DNA of 63,887 bases, filler included, from Folioceros fuciformis (lineage: Eukaryota), in NCBI GenBank assembly GCA_049999805.1. It is 11 parts of 11 records of this genome, joined end to end, with 100 filler letters (N's around TTAATTAATTAA, not from the genome) between each part and the next. Parts side by side here need not be neighbours in the genome. Positions count along the whole stretch, not along the records: positions 15,365 to 25,214 come from JBNGIO010003145.1; 10 more parts are not named here. One strand, 5' to 3'. Shown here piece by piece: positions 12,601 to 54,045 of this stretch. Within the stretch, counting starts at the first letter, position 1, and the number at the start of each line of letters is the position of its first letter. A model generated the notes under the pieces. It saw only the letters and a program-made list of their open reading frames with translations, was not told the origin of the DNA and did no database searches. Both the position numbers and the translations under genes were made by a program.

Positions 12601-13585
12601 TATGAACGAAACGACAACTCGAACACAGTACACATTGCTTGGACCACTATCAGGTTTATGGTGCCCCAGTTCATTCTCAAACAACTACATGACATAGTGT
12701 GTTGGTGGATACATGGCCATGCCCCGTTGCCCTTGCCCACCACACTCCACTCCGCCCCCCCTCAATGTCATTGCATTCGAACCAAAGATACACATTCGCG
12801 AACTTATATTCAACTGAAGTCCTTGNNNNNNNNNNNNNNNNNNNNNNNNNNNNNNNNNNNNNNNNNNNNTTAATTAATTAANNNNNNNNNNNNNNNNNNN
12901 NNNNNNNNNNNNNNNNNNNNNNNNNTAGCTTAGCTCTTAGCTTAGCTTTTAGACCAGCTCCCTACAAGTCCTTTTTTGCAGTTGTGACTTTTGCATTTCA
13001 CAGTTGTGGATTGGTTTGGTTTTCTAGCTTTAGCAGCAAGCGTGACTGTAGTATTGGCTTGCCTTCTTTTCCTCTTCCAGCCTAGCTAGATGACTTGTTG
13101 TTTGCTGTGCATGTTCATGGGGGAATGCAACCTAAGGAGCATGGGACCAGTCCTCGTTATAGATTGAGATCCTGTGACATCCCTGGACAAAGCACCCCAC
13201 CTAGACGTGCATACACACAACGGAGGAGGGCAGCCAAGAGGCAGGAGCAAGCTCAGGAGTTTGTGGAAGTCAGCATCGACCCCGACACTCCACCTTCAAC
13301 AACAAGGCTAGCAACCAACTGGTCCCCATTTACAAGTTTCCTCATCTCTGAGCCTTCAACTTTGGAGGGAGAGCAGGCTCCATTTCAAAGCCAGCTACCT
13401 GAGGAGAGGAGGAGACACAGGGAGAGTTCTTGTTAGAACAGTCCTTGGGCCATACACCCTTGGAGCAGCCCCACTTGCCAATGTGGGGTGGGCAGCCTTC
13501 AATTCACTCAGGCCTTAGATTTCCTCATCCAGGACAGCCATACATCAGCCAGTAACGTGCTGAGTATTCTGAAGACTCAGACGAC

Positions 13586-15216
13586 ATGGAAGGAGGAGCA
13601 CCTTACAGGCATGAGAGATTTTCAGGGAGGCCAGGTACACAACCCCTACGAAACTTCAAGTTATTTGTCAATGGCATGATCAATCGAGTCAAGTTTAAAC
13701 ATGGTGCTACGTACAGCCACCTCTACATGTTTGAACAATTGGTTGGTCATCTAGCAAACGAGGCCCTAGACTTGTATGAGGTGCACCAAGCTGAACTCAC
13801 AGCAACGGTGGCTACGCCTAACCCCCTGTTCCAGAATGCCTTGCAGCTAGCTTACAATGCTAAGCTAGCTAATGCAATTAATGCTCACCAGGCTGGTATT
13901 GCTGTGGGAGCATTGCAGCCACAGTGCAACCACCAACAGGGGTCAGCCTAACAACGGTGGAGATGGCTGCAGCTACTGCACGTGTGGATGCTGACATCCT
14001 CACACCCAAGCATGCCAACCTAGTGGAAGACTTTTTGGAGATTTTGGAAAAGGCTTTTCCCCTCAAGACACTTGAGAAGCTTGCAGAGGTAGCAAGTTTT
14101 GCGCGCAAGAAAGGTGAAACTGTTCAGATGACCTTTCGTCGACTACAGAAATTGCGAGAGGGTACAGGAATGCTAACAGACCAAGAGGCAGCACAAAAAT
14201 TCCTCACAGCGTTGGAAGGTGATCCACTTTTCCACTTTCAGCTTGTCACACCCCTTGTGGATAAGTATGGAGATAGTTATACTTTGGAGCAGGTGCATGA
14301 GGAGGCTGAGAAGAAGGAGATTGCATTCTCAGCATATGCCTCAAGGCATTCTAAGGCCTTCACGCATTATCAAAGCATGTTCTCTAGTAAGAACATAGCT
14401 GCTGGGACTGTAGGTGCTGGGGCATCCAAGTCTACTCAAGCCAAGCCAGCCAAAGCAGGAGCTGCAGCAACCTTGGAGGCTTTGTGCAATCGCTGTGGCA
14501 GTCCGGAGCACATGGCTCCGGACTGCAAGTGCCCTCCAGAAGGATTGCTTTGTTCTCATTGCCACAAGCTTGGACATCTTGTGACTATATGCTTCCAGAA
14601 GCATCCGGAGCGAAGGCAAAAGCAAGGGGGCACCACAAATGTTGTAGGGACAGTTCCCACTTCCACTGATTCAAGCCTCTCGGCTACAGGCAATACAGGA
14701 GTCTCACGCAGCAAACAGCAGTGAGAGAAGGCCAAGGCCAAGGTGGCTACTAATGTAGACAAGCTCACTTCACTGGAAGCAACCGTGGCTGCTCTTGCCA
14801 CACAGGTGGGGGCACTTTCAGCTAGCATCTCTAGCAGCGTAGCTACTTCCAAGCCAGCTAGGACAGCCACATTGGTGGCATCACCAATAGAGGATGATGA
14901 GGACTATGGGCTACCACATGAGGCTTGTACAGTAGATGTGGCAGCATCACAGCCAAGTTCCCCCTTGCCTTCTACATGGGTAGGACAAGATCTTCGATGG
15001 TTGACCATGGCTGCAATAGCTGGATCTACTAGACCAGTCACACGACAACGTGGGGCAAGGGCTGCCATGCCTCAGTCTTTCACTCCCCTTCCTCCAGGAG
15101 CATCCATCCCGATGCGGGGACAGGATCACTTGGACGATGGACAGCTAAATATGGCTGGTCCAGGATTACAGGACAAGTTACTTACGCATACAGCAGTTAC
15201 CATGGGGAATGCTTAG
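13586..15216 (+). mobile_element. Retrotransposon gag-like region (Ty3/Gypsy-like) with two CCHC zinc knuckles; frameshifted, truncated by gap
   Basis: Overlapping ORFs 13586-13951, 13924-14724 and 14743-15216. Capsid-like FARKKGETVQMTFRRLQKL, knuckles CNRCGSPEHMAPDC and CSHCHKLGHLVTIC (both C-X2-C-X4-H-X4-C). Confidence 0.7.
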
Positions 15217-15364
15217 CGGCCGTGTGGGCTGTTTGCCATTTCCGCCCATATCTGTTTGGGAAGCNNNNNNNNNNNNNNNNNNNNNNNNNNNNNNNNNNNN
15301 NNNNNNNNTTAATTAATTAANNNNNNNNNNNNNNNNNNNNNNNNNNNNNNNNNNNNNNNNNNNN

Positions 15365-16621
15365 ATTCCTTATTGGAAAAAGCAAATACTTGCCTGCTAC
15401 TTTCCAAAATCCTTACAAAATCCTCCCTAGCCTCCAAAGTTATCTCATCAGAAATACGCCACTAAAAATCCATACATTCCTGTTTCTCATGGACATTAAC
15501 CTCATAGCTTGAGCTAGCCACATTCCCAGCTTTTCTTTCTACATCTACAACCTTTGCCCCATATCTCATTTGCTTGCTCTGCTTACCCTCATCACCTAAA
15601 ACCTCATCATGCTCTCTCATTCTTTTAGTCTCCTCTCAAGCGTCTAAACCTTCATATCTTCTTACTGTACCCAGACTACGTCTCTCCAACCTTGTGCTTA
15701 AAATAACTTTCCACTTTCTCTTCCACTCCTGATAAACTTTTATAGACATCATAAGCCACCTGACTGTATTCAAATTCATATCTTGTCCGAGTTTTTTATT
15801 CCTGTGCTCAAATGTTATGCCCTCCACTTAAGTAGTATTTGTATCAAAACCCATCGCCCTCTCTCTCTCCATGAGAGATGGCATATCCCACACCTTCCTC
15901 TTTGTATCAAATATCATCCCAGGTCCTTCCCCTTTAAATGCATTAGCGCCCTCAAAACTTACAAATGTCGGTAACGCCCTCCTGAGCTCCCCCTTTTTAT
16001 TTACACAATAGAAAGGCTGTCTATCCTCTGAAGTCACCTGCTTACTCACTCGCCCCTTATCTAATATCTGATCAACTATTAAATCATCATCCCTACGCCA
16101 CTGACTCACAAGCATCTGCAACAAATGCCTAGGCATCATATTATTCCAAAAACAACGATGCCTATGAGCCCTAGATCCAAACTGCACTGCATTCAACTTT
16201 ATAGGTTCAACCAAACAATACTTGATCTTCTCAAAATCTCGCCTCAACACCATTTTTCTATCCATTTGTGAATCCTAGGCATCATGTTATTCCAAAAACA
16301 GCGATGCCTATGAGCCCTAGATCCAAACTGCACTGCATCCAACTTTATAGGTTCACCCAAATAATACTTGATCTCCTCAAAATCTCACGTCAACACCATT
16401 CTTCTATCCATTTGTGAATTCACATTCTCAATCAAAAAACCACATTCTTTCCTCTGATGCTTTCGCACCAAATTCAAAATCCTAATTTGCTCATAAAATA
16501 ACACCTACCTATAATCCAACAAGCCTTTTCCCTTGCCTACCATTGAATACCCTTGACATTCCTAGCCAGCTATTATCAGATCAATTTCTTCCTCCATTTG
16601 AAATTGTACCAATCCAATAAG
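15365..16621 (-). pseudogene. 3' part of a retrotransposon-borne C5 cytosine DNA methyltransferase (motifs IV-X), followed by the start of the RT region
   Basis: Hand translation from 16621 downward: LIGLVQFQMEEEIDLIIAG*ECQGYSMVGKGKGLLDYR*VLFYEQIRILNL (motif IV, Cys codon 16558-16556), GFLIENV (motif VI, 16429-16421), DAVQFGSRAHRHRCFWNN (VIII), PSLMERERAMGF (IX), RNKKLGQDMNLNTVRWL (X). After a linker comes WRISDEITLEAREDFVRILESSRQVFAFSNKE (~15460-15365), which resembles the pre-RT segment of Gypsy pol. Confidence 0.85.
16128..16419. repeat. 146-bp tandem duplication inside the methyltransferase (frameshifting)
   Basis: 16128-16273 and 16274-16419 both encode MDR.MVL..DFE.IKY.L.EPIKL.AVQFGSRAHRHRCFWNNMMPR. 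The copies differ at several positions. Confidence 0.9.
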
Positions 16622-17085
16622 TGTTACGGATAATAAATGATATCCTAACACAGATTAACCAGTTATAACCTACTAGTAGTTAGGCTAAAGTGAATAGACA
16701 CTTTAGTCAATATTTAAACATACACAATTTTGTATTTAATTAATTCATTCAATGTTTACAACAAGCTTCCGCTTATTATCATGGTATCATAGCTCTGGCT
16801 CTTTGATCCATGCTGCTCAGTTGTACATAGATTTAGGCTACTCTATAAAATAGAGCAGATGTTGTACTCTAGATGAGACAAGGTGTCTTTTAACATAGCT
16901 TAGTGTGCATTCATTTATGCACGCTGAGCAATGTTGGAATGTCCACTAGACAACATTTGATGAGTCTAGCTACAATGGGATCATTACACATATTAGACTA
17001 TGTTGGTCCCATCTGAGCAACAGGGATGACGCGTAGGTCTAGAAATAGGCATCATGTTCTAAGTGTAGGGGAATTTAAAACTAAA

Positions 17086-17517
17086 ATGACTTCTACCTCA
17101 AATAGATACCTTGAGGATTCTTCAAGGAGAATCTCTAGACAAACCTTACGCAAGTCAGTCATCCCCATAGTATCTCAAAAATTGGAGATATCACTTGGTG
17201 AACAAAGGAATCAGCGTTCCTGTATCTGCTATGCAAATCTGTGCCCAAGCTCAAGACGAGGATTGACAAGACGATCATCAAGAGTGTTGTCACCGTTTGA
17301 AGATGAAGATTCAATCCTGAAAGTGACTCGCCCAGCAATTGTTGGTTGTATTTGAGACACTCAACTTCTGCTGTTCAGAACAAGATCAGATCTCACCTTA
17401 CAGATTGATTCAACAATTCGAATGATTGCCGCTCTTACAGAGGATCTGGGCTTGCATGCAATCTTAGACTTCTCAAGTGCAAACTGCGACTATTCAGAGA
17501 ATTGCGCGTTTTCTTAG
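17086..17517 (+). pseudogene. Extra 5' ORF (ORF0-like) of the Copia element, one internal stop; unknown function
   Basis: The frame of ORF 17026-17355 continues past TGA as DTQLLLFRTRSDLTLQIDSTIRMIAALTEDLG...FS*. It lies between PBS and gag. Confidence 0.4.
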
Positions 17518-20500
17518 AGTTTCAGACCCCAGGATTTTCACTGATGGATTCTCAAGCTGCCCTCTACTTACCGTCGCTATCGCCTTCGATTCGCGAGCGC
17601 GATGCTTGAGAGGCGACCTGATTAGATAGGTGAGAGGCGTGCTGCAGCTGGAGGTGGACAAAGCTCACCACTCCAAGCGCTACGTGCAGCCAACCACCAA
17701 CAGGCGCCTTGCGCAGGACTAACGGTTGGTAGTCATGTACACGTAGGCACATTTCTCCTAGATTGTGTACACCTATCATGAGCACACAACTTGTCATATC
17801 CTTAAACTTGTAAGTTAGGGCACGTTTGGTGTTTCTAGGTCACACTTACTTACCGTTTCAAATCTCCATGTCGTTTCGGAGTGGCGTTTTGATTTTGATT
17901 TGTTTTTTGATTAGTTAATATCCTACAAACATTTGACGCATATACGTATTCTCTACGTGAATGCATAGACATTTTCTGTATGTCAGGTCTCTCATTTCTC
18001 TTTGAAGAGACTGATAGTGATCCTGACACATACCAAGAAACGGAGGCGTCATTTTTGCAGTCTCTAATGTCTCAATTTTCCTCTATGGTTGCTCCTCCTG
18101 CACCTATTCTCCCTGTTGTTATTGCACAAATGACTACAATACAGTCTGCAACTTTCGGAGGCGAATTCAAGGAAAAAGACCGTTTTGATGGTACACATAC
18201 CAAGTATGAAAGCTGGCGAGCTAGGATGAAGGCATTCCTAGATGCTTGTGATGTGTGGGAGGGGAGTATCCAATGGCTCGATTCCTATTCCTGCACCAAT
18301 TGATCCCCAAGATGTTAAAGACAAGTTTGTCAAAGGGAACAAGGTGGCCTTTGCCATCATACTTTCAGGCCTTGGAGAAACTACAGTTACAGAAGTTGAA
18401 AGCTTGCCTACAGCTGCTGCTGTGTGGGAGCAACTTAAAAACACTTACCAGGTTCAAAATATATTGACGCTGGTTTCTGTTCGTAATCAATTCTATCGCT
18501 TGCGTTTGAAGGAAGGAGATAGTTTGGGAGCACATATAACCAAGTTTTGGTACCTAAGAGCACAGCTTGCTACGCTCGGCAGCATAATGACCAAAGTGGA
18601 TGTTGTTGCTCAGTTGCTTGGCAGTTTACCTCCCACCTATCAAACCTTCATCTTTGGACAGAATGCTGCTTTTTAGTCTTCATATATTGCTGTTGCTGCT
18701 GGTTAACTAGCAACTATCAACCTGAACAATGTGATTGGCGCGCTCCTTCAAGAGGAGCAAAGCCATCACAGGTCTGGATCCAGTTCCAGAAATCGAGGTG
18801 AAAAATTGCTCTTGGCAGCCAAGGGCAAAATGTTTGGGAAGGGGACGGATAAAGGAGGAAAGAAACCTACCTCCATTTTGTCCTTGACTGCCAAACGAGT
18901 TGGCACTTGCCAGTGGTGTGGCATCCCTGGACATTGGGAGCACAATTGTCGTAAGACGCAAGTTGGTGATCCTAAGAAGGACGTGAAAGTAACACAAGCT
19001 CATGTTGCTGTGAAGGACTCAAAGTTACCTTGACACAAGAGTGCTGCAATAGCCTTCATTGTGTGCTTCAATGCTACTTGAGAGCTTTCATCACTGTGGT
19101 TGATTGGCTCAGGTGCCTCTACACATGTTTGCAACAACCGGCAGTTGTTCACAACTTTCTGGAACACAACCTCACCACAGTTAATTTATGTGGGAGATGC
19201 TCGAGGAGTTGCAGTTAAAGGTACTGGACGAGTAGTCATACCTTTAATGAGTGGAGGAACACTTCAGTTGGAAGATGTTCTCTATGTGCCCTCCATGTCA
19301 AAGAACCTGATCTCCATCCGAGCAATTACAAGTAGTCAGTTGTATGGTTTCCGTTTTGAGGCTAACCACTGTTACATTTACAATTTAGATGATTTAGACC
19401 ACCATGTAGCAGAAGCTGCAGCAGTTGGTGACTTGTATCAGTTGTTCACTACATCCAAGAGGTTAGAACGAGCTTATGTAGTCACTTTGACGAATCAGGC
19501 TAAGTTGTGGCATGCTAGATTGGGTCATGTAAATAAAACCAAACTTGACCTTATGTCGGCGTCAGATTGTTACAGAGAGAAGTTGCCGTCATGTTTCAAA
19601 TCACTTCCTGTTTGCAGTTCCTGTGTCCTATCCAAGCAAAAAGAACTACCCTTCAAGAATAGGAATGCCACAAGGGCAACATCCTTGTTAGAGTTGGTAC
19701 ATGCTAACATAGCTGCAAAACTGCAAATTAAGTCATTAGGAGGTGCTGAGTACTATCTAACAATCACTAATGATTATTCAAGATACACTTGGACTTACCC
19801 ATTGTGACACAAAAGTGATACTTCGATCATATTTCGTCCTGGATTGTCATGGTTCAACGCCAAACCGGCTGCTTGGTAAAATGCCTAGGAACAGACAATG
19901 GAGGTGAGTTTGTTGGCTACAAATATGATGAGCTGTTTAAAAGGTGTGGCATCATTCGCCAACTGGCTGTACCCTACACACAACTGCAAAATGGTGTTGC
20001 TGAACGTAAGAACCAGACACTTATGGGCATGACTAGGAGTATGCTATCTTATGCGGGATTATCTAAAAAGTAATGGGCTGAAGCCATTATTACTGCAACA
20101 TATATACTAAACAGGCTACTTATAGCTGCTGTTCGAGGACGGACCCCTTATGAAGTTTTCTGGGGACGTAAGCCCAATATAAATCACTTAAGAGTGTTTG
20201 GATCCTCTGCCTTTGTATATGTTCCTGTAGAAAGAAGGAAGAAGTTAGACGACAGGGCAATTCCTTATCTTTTTTTAGGTTGCTCTGAGGAGAGTAAAGC
20301 CTATAAGTTGATTAATCCTCAAACTCATAAGGTAGTGCTCGCAAGAAGTGTCACATTTTGTGAACTTACCTCTCCTAGATCAGATACTTCACATGAAGAA
20401 CTTGAGGGAGAAATTACCTGTTAGAGAACGGAGGCCACGGTTAGAATGGACAGAAGTACCATATGAGTTTGTTGATTTTCGGAAATCAGCATATATGGCC

Positions 20501-22440
20501 AACTTATCTATCCAAGAAGTGAGGCCTGATCCTTAGTCGTACAGTGCAGCTCTCAATGGCCCTGATCGTGATCATTGGAGGGTTAGTATAAATGAAGAGT
20601 ATAATAGCTTAATAAAGATTAACACATGGGAATTGGTGGACTTACCTTATGGACGTAAACCCATTACCTGTAAGTGGCTGTTTAAAACAAAGCTAAATTC
20701 TGATGGCACAATTGCTCGCTATAAGTCTCGACTGGTTGCAAGAGGGTTTAGCCAAATCCCTAGAGTGGATTATGGGGAGACGTTTTCTCCTGTTGTTAAA
20801 CCACCGTCTATTCGGATTTTACTTACTATGGCCGTAGAGTTTGACCTTGAGGTTCATCAGATGGATGTGTGTACAGCGTTTCTCCATGGTGAGCTGGAGG
20901 AGGTCCTGTACAGGGAGTAGCCAGAGGGCTTTGTTAGTACCCACTGGCCTCAGCGAGTATGTAAGCTCTTGAAAACTCTCTACGGATTGAAATAGAGCCC
21001 GAGGGCTTGGTATAAACGAATCATGAAGTACCTCAAGCAGAAGGGCTTTGTGCAGTGTGGGGCAGACTCCAATGTGTTTTATTTCTCAAAAGGAGCCGTC
21101 TTCATTATTCTTGCCCTTTATGTCGACGATGCCATCCTGTTGAGGAACAGTACCTCCATGTTAGATAAGGCAAAGGCCTTGCTTCGAGCAAAGTTTGCGA
21201 TGACATACCAAGGCAAATTACAATTTTGCCCTGGAATTCAGATCTTACTGGATAGGCCTGCTGGAGCAATTGTACTACATCAGACTAAATATCTCAAGGA
21301 GATTTTGAAACGTTTTGTTCTTGATTCTGCTCGTCTAGTGTCCACTCCCTCAGTAGTGGGAGTAAAGCTCACAGCAGACATGTCCCCAACAACTGCTCTA
21401 GATCTTGCTGACATGCAAGCTGTACCTTATGCTGAGGCTGTGGGTTGTCTTATTTTCATTGCCAATTAAACTCGCCCCGATATCTCCTATGCAGTGAGTA
21501 TTGTTAGCCAATTTCTCAAATGCCCAAGCAGACCTCATTAGGCTACTGTCAAGAGGATTTATTGATATCTTAAGGGTACAATTCATCTTGGCTTGCATTA
21601 TATAGCCAGTGGACATAAACAGATGGTACTTACCTCTTGGGCTGATGCCAACTGGGCTTCAGATGCCGATACCAGACAGAGCCTTTCAGCCTATGTGTTT
21701 CAACTTGCGTTGGGATCTGTAAATTGGTCCTGTAAAAAGCAAGCATCGTTAGCGCTGTCCAGCACTGAAGTTGAGTATAAAGCCTTAACAAATGCTTGTA
21801 AGGAAGCGGAGTGGGAGAGGCAATTCCTGGATGGTATTCACTTACCTCAGAATGAACTAACCCAACTCTTCTGTGATAATATGAGTGCCATTGCCTTGGT
21901 CTTGAATCTAAGATTTCATGCACGAACAAAACACATAGAGTTGTATCATCATTTTATACGTGATGCAGCAGAAAGAGAAGTTGTAAAGTTGAGTACATAC
22001 ATACAGACAGCAACACTGCCAATGTTTTGACTAAGGGGCTTGTTAAGACAAAGCACTACAGACATGTGGCAGCTCTTGGCTTAAGGATTTTGTTATGCCT
22101 ACTCCCTCTTCTACAACTTGAGGCTGTCACTTGCCCTATGGGAAGGATGAAGAAACCCAAGGACTTAGTGTGTTTATTGTCGATTGGTTAAGGAGGTCCA
22201 AACTCCCAGCGTGTCCGCTTAAATATCTTCCTGTTGTTGTCCTTTCTTATACAGGCAAATTCAGGTAGCAATATTTTAGTGGATGAAGCCAACAAGTTAT
22301 AGTACAAAGCGTAAATTGTCTGCAGCAAATTGTATGGTAGCAGTCTTAATCGCTTACCTGTAAATGTGAGTGGGACTGTAAGGTTTTCCACCGTGAACCT
22401 CTTCAACGTAATCCATCAAGATTAGCTCCTTCACCAAGTG

Positions 22441-22857
22441 CTAACACTCTATCTCTGTGAAAGGATGGTTAAGATCGTTAGGATCAGGCTTAGGAGATAG
22501 CAACTCTTGCAACTCATACAGTTTGCAGCTTGACTCCTTTAGGGCCTCTTTCAACTCGTCGCACTTCTTCAGGACAGCATGTAGGTGACAAAACATGTTC
22601 CTGTCAGCCAAAGTCGGTCTCTGGAATCTGAGAATCTGAGAAGTCTGAGAATCTGGAAGCGAGGGTTCTCTAGTGTCTTTGGTCTTCACCAGACTTGAGC
22701 TTGGATGACCTATTCCAGGTTGATGCACAAAAGGTTGTTCTTGGCGAGGCAGAACGCGATTCCTGGTCGGCGCCATCTTGTTGATCAGCGCTGCTTCGGC
22801 TCTGCATGTTAGAAGTGTGGTGAGCACGCATATAAAGACATCCAGGAACGGCTCCAT
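22441..22857 (-). CDS. Antisense 3' extra ORF inside the Copia element (138 aa, hydrophobic N-terminus, coiled-coil-like C-terminus)
   Basis: Open ATG-started ORF between RNase H and the PPT, opposite to pol. Analogous ORFs occur in two other Copia elements of this window. Confidence 0.45.
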   Translation of the reverse strand: MEPFLDVFICVLTTLLTCRAEAALINKMAPTRNRVLPRQEQPFVHQPGIGHPSSSLVKTKDTREPSLPDSQTSQILRFQRPTLADRNMFCHLHAVLKKCDELKEALKESSCKLYELQELLSPKPDPNDLNHPFTEIEC

Positions 22858-23197
22858 TGCTCACAGCCTTGAAGCCGCACGTGTCAAGAATGACAATCAG
22901 AAGAGTAGGTGCAACTCTTGAAGAGTGGGAGTAATCACTGCCTGATCCGTTCAGTTGTGGAGGAACCCGTGTAACGCAAGCGTAACGAGTTTTAATGGTT
23001 GAATAATCAGGAATCCGTTCTATGGCTAAATGGGAGTGTTACGGATAATAAATGATATCCTAACACAGATTAACCAGTTATAACCTACTGGTAGTTAGGT
23101 TAAAGTGAATAGACACTTTAGTCAGTATTTAAACATACACGATTTTGTATTTTAATTAATTCATTCAATGTTTACAACAAGGTTCCGCTTATTATCA

Positions 23198-24056
23198 ATA
23201 AGCCTAACATCTTGCGGCCAAACAGAAAACGCTTGCTTCACAGCTTTAACCTTTAATTGTTCAAGATACTTTTTGCATAATTTAAACACCCTTGCCTTTG
23301 CAATTGCCTGACAAACTTCATCTGGATCACAATAAATATAACGTCTGACCACATACCCAGTAGCCAACATAGCCTCCAGACCAGATGCAATCCCAGCAAA
23401 CAACTCAACCACAACCAATCCATACTCAGACAAACTCAATGTCACAAGTTTATTACACACAGGTTCAAGTTTACAAACTGCTTCCTTTGTACAAAACTGA
23501 ATTTTATCATCTAGCTGAAACTCAACCTGTCGCTTTTCAAGCTCTCTAAAAATTTCAGCTAATACTCTACCAACATTTTCTCTCATTGCAATTTCTTCCA
23601 CTCTGTTATGACTATATTCCTTTAAACATAACTTATCCATATGCCTCTCCATCCACAACTTATCATCTTCATCTTCTTCCTCCTGCTCATCCCAAGAAGT
23701 CGTCATGTTTACTACACACGCATCTTGCATGTCCTCCTGTAATTGCAACTTAAGTGGAATTGTTGCTACTCTCATTCCTTCACCTTGTCGCCATCTTGGA
23801 CGATAGTAGAACTCCTCTGCCCATAAGTCCACCCCTCCTCCATGCATGAATAAAGCCTATGTTCCCAAAATAACATCAAAATTTCCAGATTTGACAATCA
23901 AACATTTCATATCAATCGTTGTCTCTTCTTTTGTCCCAGGCTTAAAACATAACTGCAATTTCTCTTTAGTTTCCCCCATCATTGCCTCCAGGCCTCCATT
24001 GGCCATCCTTATCTTCCATCTTGTCTCCTGTATATCTTCCTTTCTCAATCCCATAG
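23198..24056 (-). pseudogene. 5' part of the methyltransferase-bearing pol: C-terminal half of a retropepsin, acidic linker, and C5-MTase motifs I-III
   Basis: IRMANGG...CLIVKSGNFDVILGT (retropepsin flap and DVILG, 24054-23857); GGGVDLWAEEFYYRPRW; LVVVELFAGIASGLEAML (motif I, ~23418-23365), YIYCDPD (motif II), WPQDVRLI (motif III) running into the Copia TSD. Confidence 0.85.
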
Positions 24057-25214
24057 TGTGGACTCCACATGCTGAACAGGTCCCTGGAAAATGGTAGGAT
24101 TTTTTTTTTTTGGAATCTTTGAGTGAATCCTATAGTGAAATAGTTAGAAGATTAGGTTAGATTAGTAGCTAGATTAATGGTGAGTCGATAGGGTCTAGGA
24201 GGGTATGTGGTAGATAGGACACGGGCTCCAGTTCCTCAAGATAAGGTAACAGAGGAACAGGAACCCTAGAATGGGTCATGGGAGGTGAGCCGGGGTTGCC
24301 TCTGGCTGATGCTTGTGGAAGCGGGAGACGGGGATAGAGGTGCCTGGTGCCGAGGGCCTGAGAGCAGGCGGTCACGCAGGAGGGCCTAAGGTTGTGGGAG
24401 CATCAGATTTGGGAAAAGCTAGCCAACCAGATGGCTAGGCTAGGGGGAGCATTGACTCAGGGTAAGATGGCTAGGCTAGATGGCTAGGCTAGGGGGAGCA
24501 TTGACTCAGGGTAAGATGGCTAGGCTAGGGGGAGCATTGACTCAGGGTAAGTAGGCTGGAGGATAGCCGAATCAGGAATGGGCCGGCTGTTCGGCTAGCC
24601 ACTCTGATCGGCTAACTTGACCTGGGCTGAGGACGGGCCTGGCCGGCGGGACGCAGTCGGAGTAGGGCGGCGCGAGGTTGGTCAACTATGCATGCAGAGC
24701 CAGCCAGCTGGGAACGGTTGGGAGCAACAGCTGGGTGCAGACGGGTTGGTCGGGCAGTTCGTTGGTGGGCTGGCATCCAGGGGGTGGTTGCAGAAGACAG
24801 ACCCAGGCGGAGGACAGATCGGTGGCTGGAGCCAAGACTCACGCCGATGGTCTGGCTGCCTAGCCAATAACAGGTGGCGGTTGCGTAGACCGAGGGCCGG
24901 GAGCCAGACGGCTTGGCGGGTCTCGGCTAGACACGACATCCAGCCCGGTTGAAGTAGGCTATGTCGGGCAGGGGTTGCGCTGGACCCAAGTCGGCAGGGC
25001 GTTGGGGCCCGGATAGCCATTGTTGGCCAACCAAGATCGCGAAGAGGGTGACTGGTCGGAGCTGGGCAGAGCAACCTCGCTGGCTGTCTCAGCCAGGCAC
25101 TCGCCTGGCCTGCTAGCAGTCGGGATTGGGTCGGGCCGGCTACAGCTGATCCAGCCTGGTGTGGTCGGGCTGGGCGGGCTGGCTGACGGGGATCCTGGAG
25201 GTCTATTCCTGGCC
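24057..25214. mobile_element. Second LTR-type insertion interrupting the protease; truncated by gap
   Basis: Begins TGTGGACTCCACATG...TCCCTGGAAAATGGTA..T-run, clearly similar to the start of the PBS-confirmed LTR at 62358. It cuts the protease frame at 24056. Confidence 0.6.
24429..24551. repeat. 36-bp tandem repeat x3 (plus a 13-bp partial copy)
   Basis: Unit agatggctaggctagggggagcattgactcagggta is repeated identically. Confidence 0.9.
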
Positions 25215-25314
25215 NNNNNNNNNNNNNNNNNNNNNNNNNNNNNNNNNNNNNNNNNNNNTTAATTAATTAANNNNNNNNNNNNNNNNNNNNNNNNNNNNNN
25301 NNNNNNNNNNNNNN

Positions 25315-27933
25315 ATCAGACAAATCTGGCGGCACAGGAATAGGAGCTGGAGGATCTGCAGTAGGAGGTTGCTGCTGCAAATCAGCAGGAACATCTAGAG
25401 GAGCCAAGACCTGGTCAGGTAATTGTGGCAGGTCTTGCTGTTCAGGAGCTTGTTCATGATTGTTAAGCTCATGCTGTGCTTCCCCCCCTGCAGGAGCAAC
25501 CTCCTCAAGATCATGATCAGGGAATGTGGTAACAGCAGGTAACAAGGAAAAATCAATGTTCGAAGGAGACCCCCCCTCAGGAGGAACTGCTCCCACTGGC
25601 TGCCAAAAGTGATCTTCATCAAAAGTGATGCTGCGAGCATAGATAACTTGATTACGAGGTACGTCATATAGCTTGTATGCCTTAATACCCTCAGTGTACC
25701 CAAGCATAAGAAGCTTGAGGGCTTTAGCAGCTAACTTGGTTCTTTTCTTCTTAGGGATGAAGGCATAAGCAATGCAGCCAAAGGTACGAAGATGAAGAAT
25801 GGCTGGCTTCCGTCCATAGAAGGCTTCATAAGGTGTTTGGCCAATTACAGGAGTGGTAGGTAATCTGTTGCGAAGATACACAGCTGTCATAAGGGCTTCA
25901 GCCCAGTAACATAGAGGTAAGGAGGCTTGATGAAGGAGGGAGGAGACCATCTCCTGAAGAACCAGGTTTTGGTGCTCAGCAACTCCATTTTGCTGAGGTG
26001 TGTAAACAACTGTAAGTTGTCTCCCAATACCTTCATCTCTACAATATGCCTGAAACTCTCCAGAGGTAAACTCTCCACCATTCTCAGAACGGAGGGTTTT
26101 AAGTTGTTTTCCAGTCCAACGTTCTACAAGTTTCAGGTAATCCTTAAACAGAGAAAAGCCTTCATTCTTAGCTTTCAGAATGTAAGCCATAACAAATCTT
26201 GTTTTGTCATCTGTGAAGGTGAGAAAGTATTTGCCTCCTCCAATGGAGGGCTGAGAAAGAGGCCCACATATGTCAGTGTGAACAAGTTCAAGAACATCCG
26301 AAGCCCTATGAGGAGTCTTGTTCTTGAAAGCTGCTTGATGGCGTTTAGAGAGGACACATGCCTCACATAACGGTAAGAGTGGCAACCTACCAATCTGGCC
26401 ATCAGCATACAGATCACTAAGAGCAAGTTTCTGCAACTTTGCGCTGTGAGGGTGACCTAACCTATTGTGCCATAGTACAGCTTTGGCTTCTTGCTTAGCA
26501 ACTGTCTCTGGAGATTGTGAAGCAAGTGTAGCCTTAGCATCACTAATGTGAGTATGTAACCTGAACAGGTCACTATCTGAAGAACCATATGCCAAAACCT
26601 TACGAGGGTCAAAGGCATCAATGATCCTACATTCTATTGGGGTAAACAAGATGTGTGTATTGTTATCCTGATTGAGTTTTCTAACAGAAATGAGGTTCCT
26701 GGTCATTTCAGGAACGTGATACACATCTGTGAGCACAAGTGTGCCTCCAGAGGGAACAGGAAGCTTGACTGTCCCAATGCCTGGACACACAAGTTTGCTA
26801 TCATCACCCAGGTAGACAAAACGATCTGTTACTGGTTTGTATGTGATGAAGGCATTTCTATCTATGCTAATGTGCGCAGTTGCACCAGTATCAAGGTACC
26901 ATTCACTAACTGGTTTGCCTTGTGTATTCATAGATAGACAAGTGGGATTGATAAGGGGAGGAGTAAACTTCCTGGTAAGAACAGTAAGGGCTGACGGCGA
27001 GCCGTGCTTTGTAACAACAATAGGTGTCTGGGATGCTGAGTTAACCTCCTTGCGAGGAACTCCAGCCATCTTCTTACGACACTCATTCTCCCAATGGCCG
27101 GGAGTCTGGCACCAATGGCACTTCCCTACCTTTTTGGGCTTCTTTGGTGCAGTAGCTTCCTGTGAGCTGCCAGCACCAAAAGAGGTATTTTGCCTACCTC
27201 TGAAATTTGGCTTCTTCTTGCCTTTGTTGTTGTTAATGTATAGGGCTTGCTGTTTTCCAGGGCGTTTAAACTGTCCCCTAGTGACTTCCTCTTGAAGAAG
27301 TGCACTTAAAAACTCTGAGAAGGAGGTCTTGGGGAGGTCAACTCCAGCAGCCTTTGCAATCTTGCGACCCTGAAGCTGTGAAGTGTTGTAGGAGGTAACA
27401 AAATGTTGCCATGACTCTGGCAGAGTCATCATAAAGTGCAAAATCAAAGCTGAGTCATTCAAACTTTCTTGTGCTGCACTTTCCAGTTTAGAGACAAGAG
27501 ATCTGAAAACAGTTAGATGTTTCTCAATTGAATCTCCTTCTCTCATGCGCAAGGTCTGAATATCACGGAGGGCAGTCAGCTGAGATGTTTCATCCGTTCC
27601 AGCATACAGGTCTTGAAGCCGCATCCATATCTCGGCAGAGGTTCTGCAACCAGCAGTCTGTCTCAACATATCAGTCGTCAGACCACTCCGGATAAGGTAC
27701 TGTGCTGCTTCATCTTTAACGACCCAAGCGTCCTGTGCCTTTTTCTCGTCAGATGAAGGCATGGTTCCAGGAGGCACTGTAGCTGGAAACTTAATGTCCC
27801 CAGTTGCCCATTTCCATAATAGTTTGTTTTGTAATGCTCCTCTCATTCTAATGACCCAAATGTCATAGTCAGACCCCCCAAACCTGTTCTTTTCCCTAAA
27901 CCCCTCACCCGCTAGATTAGCAACGTCACCCAT
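25315..27933 (-). CDS. Copia gag-protease-integrase polyprotein (open up to the gap)
   Basis: Uninterrupted ~870-codon frame with the canonical Copia domain order. The second integrase Asp reads SENGGEF rather than SDNGGEF. Confidence 0.9.
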
Positions 27934-28086
27934 GTGTGAAGCTGTTGTTAGCCCTCCTCACTGTGAGGATTTTATGGGTAAAGTGTTAATGCACCTGTCT
28001 AACCTGCCCTGTGCAGATTAACAGGCTGAAGGATCTAGGGTTGTTCAGAATGCATCAGCATAAAGCTGCAAACTGCAGCTTCCACA

Positions 28087-49418: not shown

Positions 49419-52400
49419 TCACATGCTTTGTAGATAATTAGAAAAATCTACCAAGCCTAGGCCCTCCATGTGTGTATAGTGTTTATTCTTAGGCAAACCC
49501 TTCGTTAGGATATCAGCAGTGTTGTCCTCTGTCGGAATATACCCAACAACAGCAGTCCCCTTCTCAACTACATCTCTGATGTAGTGGTGTTGTATTTCGA
49601 TATGTTTAGTTCGGGCATGATACTTAGGGTGAGAAACAAGGTCAAGTGCGGACATGTTGTCGCATAATAAAGAAGTAGGTTCTGGTTGTTGTTGTCCAAG
49701 GTCTGCAAGCAAGGTACGTTCCCATTCAATTTCCTTAGAGGCTTCAGTCATACTCTTATACTCCGCTTCTGTCGATGATAGAGCGATTGACGATTGCTTT
49801 TTACTGCTCCAGCTTACGACCGCTGAAGATAAGAGAAAACAATATGCCGAGATGCTCCGTCTTGAGTCACTATCCGAAGCCCAGTCAGCATCTGTGAATC
49901 CAGAGAGGGTAAGCTTGCCTGTACCTGTTGTCTTATAAGCAAGTCCATAAAATTCTGTACCCTTCAGATATCGAATAACCCTCTTAGTGGCAACCCAATG
50001 GACCTTTCCAGGGTTTTCTAAAAACTGGGACAATGTACTGACAGCGTATTGAATGTCAGGTCTCGTCCAGTTTGCAATGAACAGTAAGCCTCCTACTGCT
50101 TGGCGATATGGAACAGTAGCCATCTCTCGGATTTCATCATGTCCTTGTGGACATTGTAGACTGGTAAGCTTAGTCCCAATAGCCATAGGGGTAGAAACTG
50201 GACGTGCCTGATCAAGTTTAAACTTTAGCAGCAATTCCTGCACATACTGATGCTGATGGATTATCAGCAGTCCTTCTGACCTCACTCGCAGCAGCTGAAT
50301 TCCCAAGCAGAACTTCAGTTCTCCGATATCTTTCATATCAAACTTGCTGCTTAACATGTCTTTAACTTCTACTAACAAAGGTTGATGATTTGTGGCTAGG
50401 ATCAGGTCATCAACATATATAGCAAGTATCAAAAAGTGTTGCCCACGGGTTAGCTTGTATACAGTGCCATCAGCAGTGTTTTGTGTAAAAGAATTTTGCA
50501 GTAAGTACTCATGGATGGTCAAGTACCAAATTCGACCACTTTGTTTTAAACCATAGATGGTTTTCAATAACTTAAGAACCTTATCCGGATGTCTCCTGTC
50601 CTCGTATCCTTCAGGCTGGACCATATACAGCTCCTCGTCCAGAGAACCATACAGGTATGCTGTACATACATCCATTTGATGAAGATCAAGGTCTAACTCG
50701 GCAGCTAGTGCAAGGATCATCCGGATGGACTGAGATCGGACTACTGGGGAGAAGGTCTCTTGATAGTCCAGACCTTCAACCTGGGTAAAGCCTCTTGCCA
50801 CCAACCTTGCTTTGTATCTGGCAATTTCACCTTTGGCATTTAACTTCAATTTGAATACCCATTTGCAGGAGATTGGCTTTCTGCCTTTGGGAAGATTAAC
50901 TAATTCCCAAGTACCATTCTTCATAAGGGAGTTGTACTCATCATCAGTAGCAGTCTTCCATCTCTCTTTTTCGGCACTAGAGAAGGCCTCTTTAAGTGTT
51001 TTAGGTTCCAAATGGAGTGTACTAGATGCTGAATGACAAACGTCTGCATATGAGGTTCTGAAGTCTATAGATTCATATCTAGGTTCCTTCCACTCTGTAG
51101 GAGGTTGTCTGACTCTACTGGAACGGCGAGGTGGAAGGTCAAGTACGGGGGCTGGCGGAACATGCTGGTAGTCAGGTTGTAGTGGCTGTTCAGGTAACGG
51201 GAGCGGTAAAACTCCCTCTAAAGCTGGAACGGGAGGTAAGATTTCCTCTTGCAACTGATGAGCATCAATGGGTGGGACCTGATCAGGTATCTCCAAATTC
51301 TCATTGTTATCATGTTCCATAGGTACATCTGGTGCAGGTATGTAAACAGAAGTGTCTATGTCAAATTCCTCAGCAAGCTCATCAGCGGGATCAGTCGGAT
51401 AGACAGATTCGGAGAAATTAGAAGGGTCAACAGCGGAAGGTGAGTCAGCAGACAGCTGAAAATGGTCTGGTAATCTTGGCTGATGAATTTCGAGGAAAGT
51501 GACTGAACGGGCTAACACTACTTTTCTGTTGGTAGGGTCATAGAGCTTATAAGCCTTCGATTGTTCACTATAGCCAACGAAAATAAGGGCTTGAGCTCGA
51601 GGATCCAGCTTGCGTCGTTTCTCCCCCGGAACGAGAGCAAAAGCCTTAGAGCCAAAAACTCTGAGGTGAAGAAGGCTGGGCTTTCTACGCCACATCACTT
51701 CAAAAGGAGTCCGGGCTGTGAGGGAGCTAGTGAATAAACGATTCAAAACATAAGTGGCGGTAACAATCACCTCGGCCCAAAAATGTTGAGGTAAACCTGC
51801 CCATAAGAGCATGCTCCGTGTCATTGCAAGAAGAGTCTGATTCTTTCTTTCAGCTACTTCATTTTGTTGTGGAGTGTAGGGAACAGTAAACTGGCGTTGG
51901 ATGCCTCTGTCCTGAAGATAGGAATCAAAAACATGATTGACAAATTCTGAACCATTGTCTGTACGAAGACATTTGAGCTGTTTTCCTGTTTGTCTCTCAA
52001 CTAGCTGTAGCCATTCGGTAAAAATATCGAAGGTATCACTTTTCAAATGCATAGGGTATGTCCAGGTGTACCGGGAGTAATCATCCGTCAAGCAAAGGTA
52101 ATAAATTGCTCCCCCTAATGATGAAACTTGGATCTTTCCTGAAATATCAGAGTGCACTAATTCCAAAATGTCTGTAGCCCTGTAGGTGGCGGCTTGCGGA
52201 AAAGGATGTTCTTTCTGCTTAGCAATAATACAAGCTTCACAGGGAGGAAGCTCCTTGAAGACTTGAGGTAATTGCTCAGCATGACAATCCTGTAAAGACA
52301 TATCCAGCAGTTTCCTCTGATTTACATGGCCTAGTCTTGCATGCCAAAGGACAGCAAGCTGTTCAGGGTGTTTTGAAACTGCAGCAATGCTATGCTGGAT

Positions 52401-53879
52401 AGCATAGATATCTAAGTTGTATAAGCCATATTCCAGAGTACCCTGAAAGACTGAGGACATTGGCTTGGCTGACAGGTAGAAGGAGCAAATATTGTTCGAG
52501 GCTTTCATCTCATACTTTCCAAGCTGCATAAGCTTACTTAAGGAAAACAGGTTTTTCGCCATCGATGGGACATACAATACATCAGTAAGGGTAAGTATCG
52601 AGCCATCGTGTAATGTAAATTTGCAAGTGCCTGTCCCTTGAATAGGTAAGCTGGTCCGTGCTGTCTCATCGCCCAACAGGACACGTTCTGTATTGGTAGC
52701 AGGGAAAAACTCATAGAATTGTGATTTGTTCCTGCAGATATGGGAAGTAGCACCGGAATCCAAGTACCAGCTCTCTTCTGTAGGAAAAGTTCGAGCTAAG
52801 CACACTGTAAGGATCTTCACTACAGATTTAGTGTCACCTTGTGTCCTTGGTTTAGTTGAAGCTGTCGCCACTGTTTTCTGCATACGCTGGGGCTCACCTG
52901 CTTTTTTCTTCCTGCAGTCTCTTGCCCAATGTCCTGGAATTCCACACCAATGGTAATTTCCAGGACGCTTTCCTGTAGCAAAAGATCGGTTTGTAGGATT
53001 CGAGGGCATCTTCCCTTTTCCTTTAAACTGTCTTTGATGTGCAACCAGTATCCTTTCTGATTTGTTCTTAGGAATAGATTGAGAGAAAACCCTGCTCTGC
53101 TCCTCCTGGTACAAGGCCCCAATTACGTCTTCCAGCGTAAGTGTGCTTGTACTTCCAGAGGCAACAGACGCACTGGCCTGTCGGATTGGGCCATTTTGGC
53201 TGGTCACAAAAGACTGGTAAGAAGGAGGCAACCTGGTTAACAATTCAGCTACTGCATCTAATTCAGACATAGAGACACCAGTCAGCGAGGTGATCTGTGC
53301 CTTCAGATGTCTGAATTTGCTGGTAAACATTGCAACCTTATCTCCCTCTTTCATTCTCAAATTATAAAACTCATGCTTCAAAGCGCATAGAGTTAATACA
53401 TTTTTAACTTGATACGTTTTCTCTAGCTGATCCCAAATGTGGGCTGCATGTGTGAGGAACTCAACTTCAGGAATAAGGTCGGCATCCAATCCTCCTATCA
53501 GAAGGGCAACTGCGATGCCATTTAACTCCTCCCACTCTGCAACTTTTTCCGCAGTTGGTGGGGGTATAGAATTGGGATCAGGTTTCTTATAAGTTCCATC
53601 GACTATATTCCATACATGCCTTGCCGTCAGGGTGGCCTTCATTCGTATTCGCCAGACAGGGTATCTAGTACCATTGAAACGGTCTTTTTCTTTCAATTCA
53701 GATGTATAAATTGCTTTTGGCGAAGTCACACTAGCCATACTGACTGATGCTATGTGATTAAGGCTCAAACTCTGCAGGCTATGTATGAGGGAATCTACTG
53801 CGCCAGCCAAACCTGTGGTCATAAAACTAAGACAGGGTATAACGGAAACAGTATGGGATTTTTGGTGACTCAATTTCAA
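49419..53879 (-). CDS. Full-length Copia gag-pol polyprotein (gag, PR, IN, RT, RNase H); true start probably an internal ATG
   Basis: 1486 codons without a stop. WYLDSGATSH, LWHARLGH...CEAC, TDNGSEF, HQMDV, YGLKQSGRIW, IYVDD, FTDADWA, SSTEAEY, RTKHIE, ADILTK. Confidence 0.96.
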   Translation of the reverse strand: MKLSHQKSHTVSVIPCLSFMTTGLAGAVDSLIHSLQSLSLNHIASVSMASVTSPKAIYTSELKEKDRFNGTRYPVWRIRMKATLTARHVWNIVDGTYKKPDPNSIPPPTAEKVAEWEELNGIAVALLIGGLDADLIPEVEFLTHAAHIWDQLEKTYQVKNVLTLCALKHEFYNLRMKEGDKVAMFTSKFRHLKAQITSLTGVSMSELDAVAELLTRLPPSYQSFVTSQNGPIRQASASVASGSTSTLTLEDVIGALYQEEQSRVFSQSIPKNKSERILVAHQRQFKGKGKMPSNPTNRSFATGKRPGNYHWCGIPGHWARDCRKKKAGEPQRMQKTVATASTKPRTQGDTKSVVKILTVCLARTFPTEESWYLDSGATSHICRNKSQFYEFFPATNTERVLLGDETARTSLPIQGTGTCKFTLHDGSILTLTDVLYVPSMAKNLFSLSKLMQLGKYEMKASNNICSFYLSAKPMSSVFQGTLEYGLYNLDIYAIQHSIAAVSKHPEQLAVLWHARLGHVNQRKLLDMSLQDCHAEQLPQVFKELPPCEACIIAKQKEHPFPQAATYRATDILELVHSDISGKIQVSSLGGAIYYLCLTDDYSRYTWTYPMHLKSDTFDIFTEWLQLVERQTGKQLKCLRTDNGSEFVNHVFDSYLQDRGIQRQFTVPYTPQQNEVAERKNQTLLAMTRSMLLWAGLPQHFWAEVIVTATYVLNRLFTSSLTARTPFEVMWRRKPSLLHLRVFGSKAFALVPGEKRRKLDPRAQALIFVGYSEQSKAYKLYDPTNRKVVLARSVTFLEIHQPRLPDHFQLSADSPSAVDPSNFSESVYPTDPADELAEEFDIDTSVYIPAPDVPMEHDNNENLEIPDQVPPIDAHQLQEEILPPVPALEGVLPLPLPEQPLQPDYQHVPPAPVLDLPPRRSSRVRQPPTEWKEPRYESIDFRTSYADVCHSASSTLHLEPKTLKEAFSSAEKERWKTATDDEYNSLMKNGTWELVNLPKGRKPISCKWVFKLKLNAKGEIARYKARLVARGFTQVEGLDYQETFSPVVRSQSIRMILALAAELDLDLHQMDVCTAYLYGSLDEELYMVQPEGYEDRRHPDKVLKLLKTIYGLKQSGRIWYLTIHEYLLQNSFTQNTADGTVYKLTRGQHFLILAIYVDDLILATNHQPLLVEVKDMLSSKFDMKDIGELKFCLGIQLLRVRSEGLLIIHQHQYVQELLLKFKLDQARPVSTPMAIGTKLTSLQCPQGHDEIREMATVPYRQAVGGLLFIANWTRPDIQYAVSTLSQFLENPGKVHWVATKRVIRYLKGTEFYGLAYKTTGTGKLTLSGFTDADWASDSDSRRSISAYCFLLSSAVVSWSSKKQSSIALSSTEAEYKSMTEASKEIEWERTLLADLGQQQPEPTSLLCDNMSALDLVSHPKYHARTKHIEIQHHYIRDVVEKGTAVVGYIPTEDNTADILTKGLPKNKHYTHMEGLGLVDFSNYLQSM

Positions 53880-54045
53880 AAGTCATATATTTTAGGGATG
53901 GCTGTTCGTGAAAATAAATAAAAAAACCTAACCGTTTCATAATGTTTCATGCAGAGGGGCATGCGCCAATGAGAATGAATTAGACACTTTAAGGTGAAAA
54001 GACGCACGACCAGTCGTGCCCTTTCAAATCTCGTACGTGTCAGGT

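Follow-up and report, generated by a model that had tools for sequence, protein, structure and literature searches.

Cytosine methylation is normally the weapon of the host against transposons, and an element with its own de novo methyltransferase reverses the logic of that defence. A locus in Folioceros fuciformis, where parts of a C5 cytosine DNA methyltransferase (DNMT) lie between fragments of retrotransposon proteins, raises the question of whether the remains of such an element are present in this genome. Here we report the analysis of this locus in a 63,887-base stretch of the assembly GCA_049999805.1 (hereafter, the window), which is composed of separate contigs joined by ten N44-TTAATTAATTAA-N44 linkers, where TTAATTAATTAA is a 12-mer. 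The element under study lies on the minus strand of the contig at window positions 15365-25214. Since 15265-15364 is one of these linkers, the sequence to the left belongs to another contig, of position and orientation not given, and is not adjacent to the element; an initial annotation of the window had taken this artificial linker for a genomic gap. The locus is very probably the remnant of a Gypsy-DNMT3 retrotransposon, dead and truncated at the 5' end; such elements encode gag, protease (PR), a DNMT3-type C5 methyltransferase, reverse transcriptase (RT), RNase H (RH) and integrase (INT). Elements of this kind are already known from Klebsormidium, and the window copy adds one dead member to them.

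The methyltransferase is hidden in the assembly by a nested insertion. A repeat search of the window found direct repeats at 16620-16781 and 23035-23197, which correspond to the long terminal repeats (LTRs) of a Copia element; the LTRs are 160 and 163 nt long, start with TGTTAC, end with TTATCA, and differ by five substitutions and one 1-nt indel. ATAAG stands ahead of the left LTR and after the right one, and the open reading frames (ORFs) between them match Retrotran_gag_2, Pol_BBD, gag_pre-integrs and RVT_2 in Pfam. The insert thus has the TG…CA LTRs, the 5-bp target duplication and the gag-PR-INT-RT order of Ty1/Copia elements, and all components of the insertion proposed by the initial annotation (16622-23197, with the ATAAG duplication) were recovered, namely the LTR pair, the target duplications and the Copia domains. 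A neighbouring Copia ORF has its best matches in a mixture of vascular plants and metagenomes, at only 26-38% identity. The sequence around the insert on the minus strand is …gat gtt agg ctt at / Copia + CTTAT / t gga ttg gta caa…, and removal of the Copia element with one ATAAG joins the two frames exactly as had been claimed, giving …DVRLI/GLVQFQMEEEIDLIIAG-stop-ECQGYS….

A second discontinuity is a 146-bp tandem duplication, whose copies (16128-16273 and 16274-16419) differ at nine places and align to the same 49 residues of related proteins (e.g., 1109-1157 of P0157, described below); because of this duplication motif VIII occurs twice. Assuming equal rates, the duplication (9/146, 6.2%) is older than the Copia insertion (5/160, 3.1%), as the divergence of the Copia LTRs is lower. 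When the Copia element and the duplication are discounted, the window copy is one continuous frame without introns, and the methyltransferase is complete, with motifs I, IV, VI, VIII, IX and X in the canonical order stated by the initial annotation (Table 1). The last piece continues in a single frame from motif VIII via motifs IX and X to …ILESSRQVFAFSNKE at the contig end, approximately 70 residues short of the RT start. Besides the Copia insertion and the frameshifting duplication, the copy has seven in-frame stops within the part homologous to its relatives, all listed in Table 1, and a 5' truncation at 24056/24057, which leaves it without gag and without the catalytic N-terminal half of PR. 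The window copy is dead and makes no protein.

Table 1. Parts of the element and conserved methyltransferase motifs on the contig at 15365-25214, in window coordinates
Feature	Position	Strand	Basis and remarks
Retropepsin C-terminal half (…IRMANGG…FDVILGT)	23857..24056	-	homology to relatives from 24054; protease matches P0062, P0085
PR-DNMT linker and N-terminal DNMT part with motif I	23198..23856	-	from in-frame stop 23857-23859 to right-hand ATAAG 23198-23202
Nested decayed Ty1/Copia element, opposite orientation	16622..23197	+	LTRs 16622-16781, 23035-23197; ATAAG 16617-16621, 23198-23202
DNMT motifs IV and VI	16420..16621	-	PF00145 E 1.6e-11; alignment to family motif AGW[E/P]CQ; stops 16562-16564, 16505-16507
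146-bp tandem duplication over motif VIII	16128..16419	-	frame shift +2; stop 16385-16387 in upstream copy
Target-recognition region and motifs IX, X	15639..16127	-	stop 15828-15830
DNMT-RT linker ending in pre-RT motif (…W…L…FAFSNKE)	15365..15638	-	stops 15636-15638, 15462-15464; alignment with 12 relatives; profile score
Motif I, ELFAGIASG	23380-23406	-	
Motif IV, AG-stop-ECQGYS	16544-16570	-	
Motif VI, FLIENV	16421-16438	-	
Motif VIII, GSRAHRHR	16301-16324 and 16155-16178	-	
Motif IX, ERERAMGF	15846-15869	-	
Motif X, LGQDMNLNTV	15762-15791	-	

Which class of methyltransferase does this domain represent? With the pieces scanned separately in Pfam, PF00145 was assigned to the middle DNMT piece at 44.7 bits against a cut-off of 22. 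Taken by itself, this piece is about as similar to M.HaeIII as to DNMT3A/B (E ~3-5e-6), and all 26 weak matches of the C-terminal piece are DNMT3A/B/C. A profile was built of 14 family sequences, among them the piece from the window, and run against the PDB sequences, where the top 29 distinct sequences are all DNMT3A/B/C (E 9.2e-20 to 3.9e-14), followed by DRM (2.5e-11), M.HaeIII (4.4e-10), M.HhaI (1.9e-9) and DNMT2 (4.5e-8); DNMT1 is absent from the 54 PDB matches of the profile. The DNMT domain of the metagenome relative L036, which is ~40% identical to the window's C-terminal DNMT half, was folded with a 26-row alignment (mean pLDDT 90.0, pTM 0.88), and among the Foldseek matches listed for this model (ranks 1 to 50) every one is DNMT3A/B/C, the best at E 4.3e-20 and a target TM-score of 0.82. 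In the alignments, the signature after motif VIII (GSRAHRHRCFWNN in the window copy, SAAHRARYFWGN in DNMT3A/B) can be recognised, as can the C-terminal block ERERAMGF…LGQ. By the profile and by the predicted fold of L036, the domain is of the DNMT3 type.

The motif IV of the family is A-G-W-[E/P]-C-Q, with WECQ in 43 and WPCQ in 27 of 113 distinct family sequences, and the window reads A-G-stop-E-C-Q, keeping the catalytic Cys with a stop two codons earlier in the place of Trp. At 16563, the middle base of this stop codon, all other contigs from DNA sequencing runs of the same organism (9 from run X1, 11 from X2 and 27 from X4) differ and encode Trp, so the stop is private to the window copy. 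Pro ahead of the catalytic Cys is near-universal; Glu in its place is a family trait, not decay. The Cys, the ENV motif and the other motifs have been retained across the family.

To what do these fragments belong? The C-terminal piece (303 aa, stops as X) was compared by phmmer with 1.84 billion representative proteins, giving 531 matches at E<=1e-3, 293 at E<=1e-10 and one at E<=1e-30, the best of them 44% identical. A word-indexed protein search for longer relatives confirmed none of 1154 candidates with the PR-linker-motif I piece as query and 2 of 371 with the C-terminal piece, and the nearest clusters in the Protein Atlas were uninformative (one with PF00145 in 33% of its members, the rest unnamed). 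The resemblance is beyond chance, because 145 of 159 family proteins are collinear with two or all three of the window pieces. Many of the phmmer matches are 1,000-3,200 residues long, and a Pfam scan of eleven identified them as Ty3/Gypsy polyproteins with two domain orders. In the first order, the methyltransferase lies between PR and RT: proteins P0015 and P0157 have zf-CCHC, Asp protease, DNA_methylase, RVT_1, RNase H and integrase; P0085 (Closterium sp. NIES-68) has zf-CCHC, gag-asp_proteas and DNA_methylase; and P0051 has zf-CCHC, DNA_methylase and RVT_1. In the second, represented by P0021, P0029 and P0013, RVT_1 and RNase H precede the methyltransferase and integrase and a PHD finger follow it; the DNMT of P0021 and P0013 was located by BLAST, not Pfam, and P0013 (from residue 46) is without RVT_1. 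With domains placed by BLAST using segments of the Pfam-scanned proteins, 168 family proteins, some near-identical, are divided into 70 of the RH-DNMT-INT type, 18 of the PR-DNMT-RT type (PR and/or RT flanking), 74 DNMT-only fragments and 6 without a DNMT match. In both architectures, the integrase is followed by a terminal PHD finger (PF00628, E 3e-10 to 4e-13), as observed in P0013, P0021, P0029 and L036 (5086-8226). Chromoviruses have a chromodomain at the place of this finger.

The named relatives come from thirty cluster look-ups and the remaining ones from metagenome assemblies. The PR-DNMT-RT type is found in Closterium sp. NIES-53, -54, -65 and -68 (Zygnematophyceae), the RH-DNMT-INT type in Chromochloris zofingiensis (Chlorophyta), and no Klebsormidium nitens protein is among the relatives from these look-ups. 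A 258-aa 'unnamed protein product' on a 13.3-Mb contig of the leafy liverwort Calypogeia fissa (P0012, CAM6104272.1) shares 37% identity with the window copy over 172 residues and falls on the window's side of the DNMT tree described below. This short liverwort protein weakens the earlier statement that such methyltransferases are not part of standard land-plant LTR lineages.

The sequences flanking the methyltransferase point to the first of the two orders. On the protease side, residues 117-219 of the first piece (from 24054, DNMT excluded) match P0062 at E 1.4e-14, residues 501-589 of P0085 at E 1e-12 and 13 more proteins by BLAST; Pfam places an aspartyl protease at 473-569 of P0085 (gag-asp_proteas) and at 708-757 of the first ORF of L036. 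The 116 residues upstream of 24054 in the same piece have no BLAST match. The upstream retropepsin half reported by the initial annotation is therefore real, this stretch alone matching the protease regions of PR-DNMT-RT relatives. On the other side, the tail shares the pre-RT block …E-x-W…L…L…FAF-x-L-x-E-LG with 12 RT-bearing relatives, and the contig breaks inside this block, ~70 residues after which RVT_1 starts in the relatives. A profile of the pre-RT segments of 8 non-redundant relatives, with the window left out, scores the tail at 16.5 bits vs a best of 7.9 in 1000 shuffles; the Gypsy-like pre-RT segment was thus found again by profile, not by BLAST.

These flanks bear on another explanation, according to which a host DNMT3 gene or processed pseudogene came to lie beside unrelated Gypsy debris by chance. 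The domain is indeed of the DNMT3 type and intronless, as a retrocopy would be, and there is no RT on the contig. Nevertheless, without the Copia element and the duplication, the protease half, the methyltransferase and the pre-RT linker form one frame; the pieces are collinear with single polyproteins of the relatives, and the homology to those polyproteins extends beyond the methyltransferase into the linkers. In addition, the sequence is multi-copy in DNA runs of the organism, and Pfam found no PWWP or ADD domain on the window pieces. Host DNMT3A/3B/3C and plant DNMT3/DRM have the same catalytic fold and order of motifs as the element, with the AHRxRxFW signature following motif VIII, whereas the element is without PWWP/ADD, embedded in a polyprotein and not rearranged like DRM; DNMT3A has S-P-C-N in motif IV in place of W-E-C-Q. 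The host-gene explanation is largely refuted, and we consider it very improbable.

The PR-DNMT-RT order recurs in independent metagenomic DNA. The pattern ERE[RLQ]AMGF occurs in at least 599 stretches of JGI metagenome contigs, of which at least 289 encode a relative. In the best 80 of these at least 289 loci, RT lies downstream of the methyltransferase in 67 and no RT is on the piece in 13; RT or RNase H lies upstream in none, and a protease is detectable upstream in 24. Most of these copies are decayed, with a DNMT ORF shorter than 500 aa in 23 of the 25 listed loci. L036 is near-intact, with ORFs of 1369 and 1047 aa in one frame and one stop between them; the first encodes gag, Asp protease and DNA_methylase and the second RVT_1, RNase H, integrase and PHD, and no LTRs are present on its 9.3-kb contig. 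Intact relatives, as sought by the initial annotation, thus exist in the form of P0157 and the near-intact L036, both with the full gag-PR-DNMT-RT-RH-INT set in the order expected for the window.

A tree of the methyltransferase domains agrees with this placement. The tree comprises family members only, 124 domains (118 different) after removal of rows with less than 200 residues of DNMT span, and was built by a quick IQ-TREE search and left unrooted; the window row was read through with X at the breaks. Rows of the RH-DNMT-INT type group in a single clade (SH-aLRT 99) that comprises 90 rows, 65 of them typed and 25 fragments, and no PR-DNMT-RT row; the window copy is among the other 34 rows, which also include all 15 rows of the PR-DNMT-RT type and 18 fragments. 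A quick search on a reduced set of 44 rows recovered the same split (SH-aLRT 95).

Could the order have been produced by the assembly, through a DNMT repeat wrongly joined to protease-like and RT-like repeats? In favour of this, the assembly is fragmented (contigs of 2-12 kb) and the region is rich in repeats, one of which has its boundary at 24056/24057. At 24057, 16 contig records have loose ends, and at 23919-24247 the summed contig depth is ~10x that of the neighbours (~3,449 in X1 vs 170-410 on the adjoining DNMT parts); only half of the retropepsin is present because a different, very abundant repeat cuts the element inside the protease at this boundary. An A12 run is located at 24101-24112 on the minus strand. 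Such a chimera is contradicted by the same order in independent public proteins and metagenome contigs. It is also contradicted by DNA-run contigs that bridge the Copia site precisely, though these contigs are all of one sample, possibly the one that was assembled. To obtain these, three runs of one sample (possibly the assembly source) and one older run were aligned to the 9.85-kb stretch at a likeness of at least 80%. Contigs join 16614 to 23196 (one in X1, two in X2) or 16617 to 23199 (two in each), with the intervening sequence marked 'between: not known', and these joins skip 6581 bases, equal to the 6576-bp Copia element plus the 5-bp duplication. They are copies or alleles without the Copia element, as predicted by the reconstruction in the initial annotation. 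An assembly chimera retains only the slightest chance of being correct.

The same alignments describe the abundance of the Gypsy-DNMT3 sequence in its host. Each DNA run placed 1,387-1,772 contig pieces on the 9.85-kb stretch, mostly 80-95% alike; hundreds of such pieces fall on the DNMT flanks, which are covered throughout. The element is therefore multi-copy and diverged. Run X4, from the same sample as X1, has C>T and G>A at 944 of its 1,390 listed change places, vs 678 of 1,759 in X1, and it covers the DNMT flanks at much greater depth than the Copia element. This bias is bisulfite-like and, if it is such, the run could report the methylation of these elements. X3, the one possible RNA run, places no more than a single 47-nt piece, with 8 differences, on the DNMT part, which is no evidence either way on expression.

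The ends of the related loci raise the question of how strictly the lineage fits the LTR class. Among 22 metagenome loci with enough flank, seven (L004, L013, L018, L023, L054, L073 and L080) have split direct repeats in the arrangement A1…coding…B1-A2-B2, with A of ~300 bp and B of ~100-180 bp, and all seven are of the PR-DNMT-RT type with a DDE integrase. Three other loci have the A pair only, three the B pair only and nine neither. Repeats of the A-coding-B-A-B kind are known from DIRS/Ngaro elements, and the seven loci show a DIRS/Ngaro-like repeat layout on a Gypsy body. The window copy may derive from a DNMT3-bearing lineage that is not a strict LTR element and combines such repeats with a Gypsy-type integrase. 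This possibility would refine the Gypsy-DNMT3 assignment, and we regard it as evenly balanced: the window copy has neither end on its contig, the nine loci show no such repeats, and in the DNMT domain the repeat-bearing relatives share only ~40% identity with the window copy, but the published Klebsormidium element has repeats of the same structure as a DIRS element according to the Fig. 4 legend in the available part of its description (PMC5890265). The initial description of the locus as a decayed, DNMT-bearing LTR Ty3/Gypsy pol therefore stands as to the C5 methyltransferase in frame between the PR half and the pre-RT segment, masked by Copia, whereas the term 'LTR' is imprecise in view of these split repeats.

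In the available text of de Mendoza et al. 2018 (PMC5890265), the Klebsormidium nitens element KnitGypsy-Dnmt3 carries a Dnmt3 in the Pol of a Gypsy element, and its DNMT domains are under purifying selection. The link drawn to this work in the initial annotation is apt, as the window domain is DNMT3-type like that of KnitGypsy-Dnmt3. Compared by description only, both have a non-rearranged Dnmt3-type domain in an intronless, multi-copy Gypsy Pol ORF, and the A-coding-B-A-B repeats of KnitGypsy-Dnmt3 are shared by relatives of the window; the window copy differs in being dead. The RT-RH-DNMT-INT-PHD variant (P0013 of C. zofingiensis and the metagenomic P0021 and P0029) shares ~35% identity across the whole DNMT, the W-[E/P]-C-Q of motif IV, the Gypsy RT, RNase H and integrase and the C-terminal PHD finger, but has the DNMT between RNase H and integrase, not PR and RT, and forms the separate clade in both trees. 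SymbioDIRS-Dnmt3 and SymbioLINE-Dnmt of Symbiodinium are also retrotransposon-borne cytosine methyltransferases, the former with a Dnmt3 in Pol. They differ in belonging to a DIRS element with tyrosine recombinase or to a LINE, and in their dinoflagellate hosts, and the same text attributes them to independent acquisition (PMC5890265). The EpiLTRs of Cymbomonas and Euglena are LTR retroelements with a cytosine methyltransferase in pol; according to the available part of a 2026 preprint (10.64898/2026.05.21.726589), this DNMT is sister to DNMT4 and lies at the pol 3' end, accompanied by an adenine methyltransferase and a chromodomain, and none of these features was found in the window element. 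In that part, the preprint adds these DNMT4-like EpiLTRs and refers in passing to 'streptophytes (Gypsy-DNMT3)'. Within the literature covered, which comprised neither subscription journals nor supplements and was in part available as partial text, a Gypsy-borne DNMT3 is described only by de Mendoza et al. 2018 and only from K. nitens, and the two domain orders, the members in Closterium, the liverwort and Chromochloris, and the W-E-C-Q motif are not described.

A likely history of the window copy begins with the 146-bp tandem duplication, which would have broken the frame. The Copia element would have inserted later between motifs I and IV, creating the ATAAG duplication, and the seven stop codons would have built up. 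In live elements, the methyltransferase is presumably translated within Pol. Either after release by the protease or still joined to Pol, the enzyme may methylate the cDNA of the element, its new insertions or nearby host DNA and chromatin, as the literature suggests for such proteins, so that the element rather than the host would set the epigenetic state of the element. The C-terminal PHD finger of the relatives may guide the methyltransferase.

Several points weigh against this reading of the locus as a Gypsy-DNMT3 element. RT, RNase H and integrase of the window copy fall beyond the contig end and its terminal repeats are off the contig; it is the protease half, the pre-RT motif and the relatives that support the Gypsy membership of this copy. 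The pre-RT tail alone has nothing at E<0.05 by BLAST, and neither the N-terminal nor the C-terminal DNMT piece matches PF00145 when scanned alone in Pfam. The branch of the window in the DNMT tree is long (~1.2) with exact neighbours not settled, both trees being quick searches. The contigs that join the Copia flanks are not independent, because X1, X2 and X4 are of one sample, maybe the assembly source. The window and the 43 of 113 family sequences with WECQ read Glu-Cys, not the usual Pro-Cys, and we know of no W-E-C-Q enzyme whose activity has been assayed. In the available text of the Klebsormidium study, de novo CG methylation in yeast is reported for SymbioDIRS-Dnmt3 domains, the only class for which activity was demonstrated, and KnitGypsy-Dnmt3 had no activity there, a result its authors judged inconclusive (PMC5890265).

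The window copy is a fossil that shows the family to be multi-copy in this host, and it is the wider family that deserves more attention. The same enzyme clade occurs in Gypsy polyproteins of Closterium and of a chlorophyte, in a liverwort protein and in hundreds of metagenome contigs, which is wider than published. There is about an even chance that Gypsy-DNMT3 constitutes a large and old retroelement lineage of green plants, with hundreds of clusters at 50% identity, two Pol insertion points of one DNMT3 clade, a C-terminal PHD finger, split repeats and a common W-E-C-Q. Such a lineage would extend from chlorophytes via Zygnematophyceae to land plants, the latter represented by the liverwort protein and possibly by the present host, where the element is multi-copy and other copies keep the Trp of motif IV. 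This raises the questions of whether the gains and losses of plant DNMT3 interacted with transposon-borne copies, and whether the Glu-for-Pro catalytic variant is active.

Elsewhere on the contig of the element, a GC-rich stretch contains a 49-bp tandem repeat in three copies (24429-24562), and 24631-25214 is matched without a difference by an 854-nt contig from X3, the possible RNA run. An Rfam search returned 0 matches, and ten long ORFs elsewhere in the window have Copia domains only, or nothing. Among other contigs, an open Copia polyprotein of 1,487 aa with gag, Pol_BBD, integrase and RVT_2 (49419-53882, minus strand) and an open 896-aa gag-PR-INT ORF (25267-27957, minus strand) are potentially young Copia copies. 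The separate contig at 12926-15264 (plus strand) encodes a gag with a CCHC knuckle (13580-14712) that is homologous to the gags of the PR-DNMT-RT type (residues 66-482 of the first L036 ORF, E 3e-14; residues 116-346 of P0085, E 8e-10). Approximately 450 bp past this gag, at the contig end, lies an RNase H fragment (15159-15263) that is 60% identical to L036/P0110, and this contig may represent an internally deleted relative without PR-DNMT-RT.

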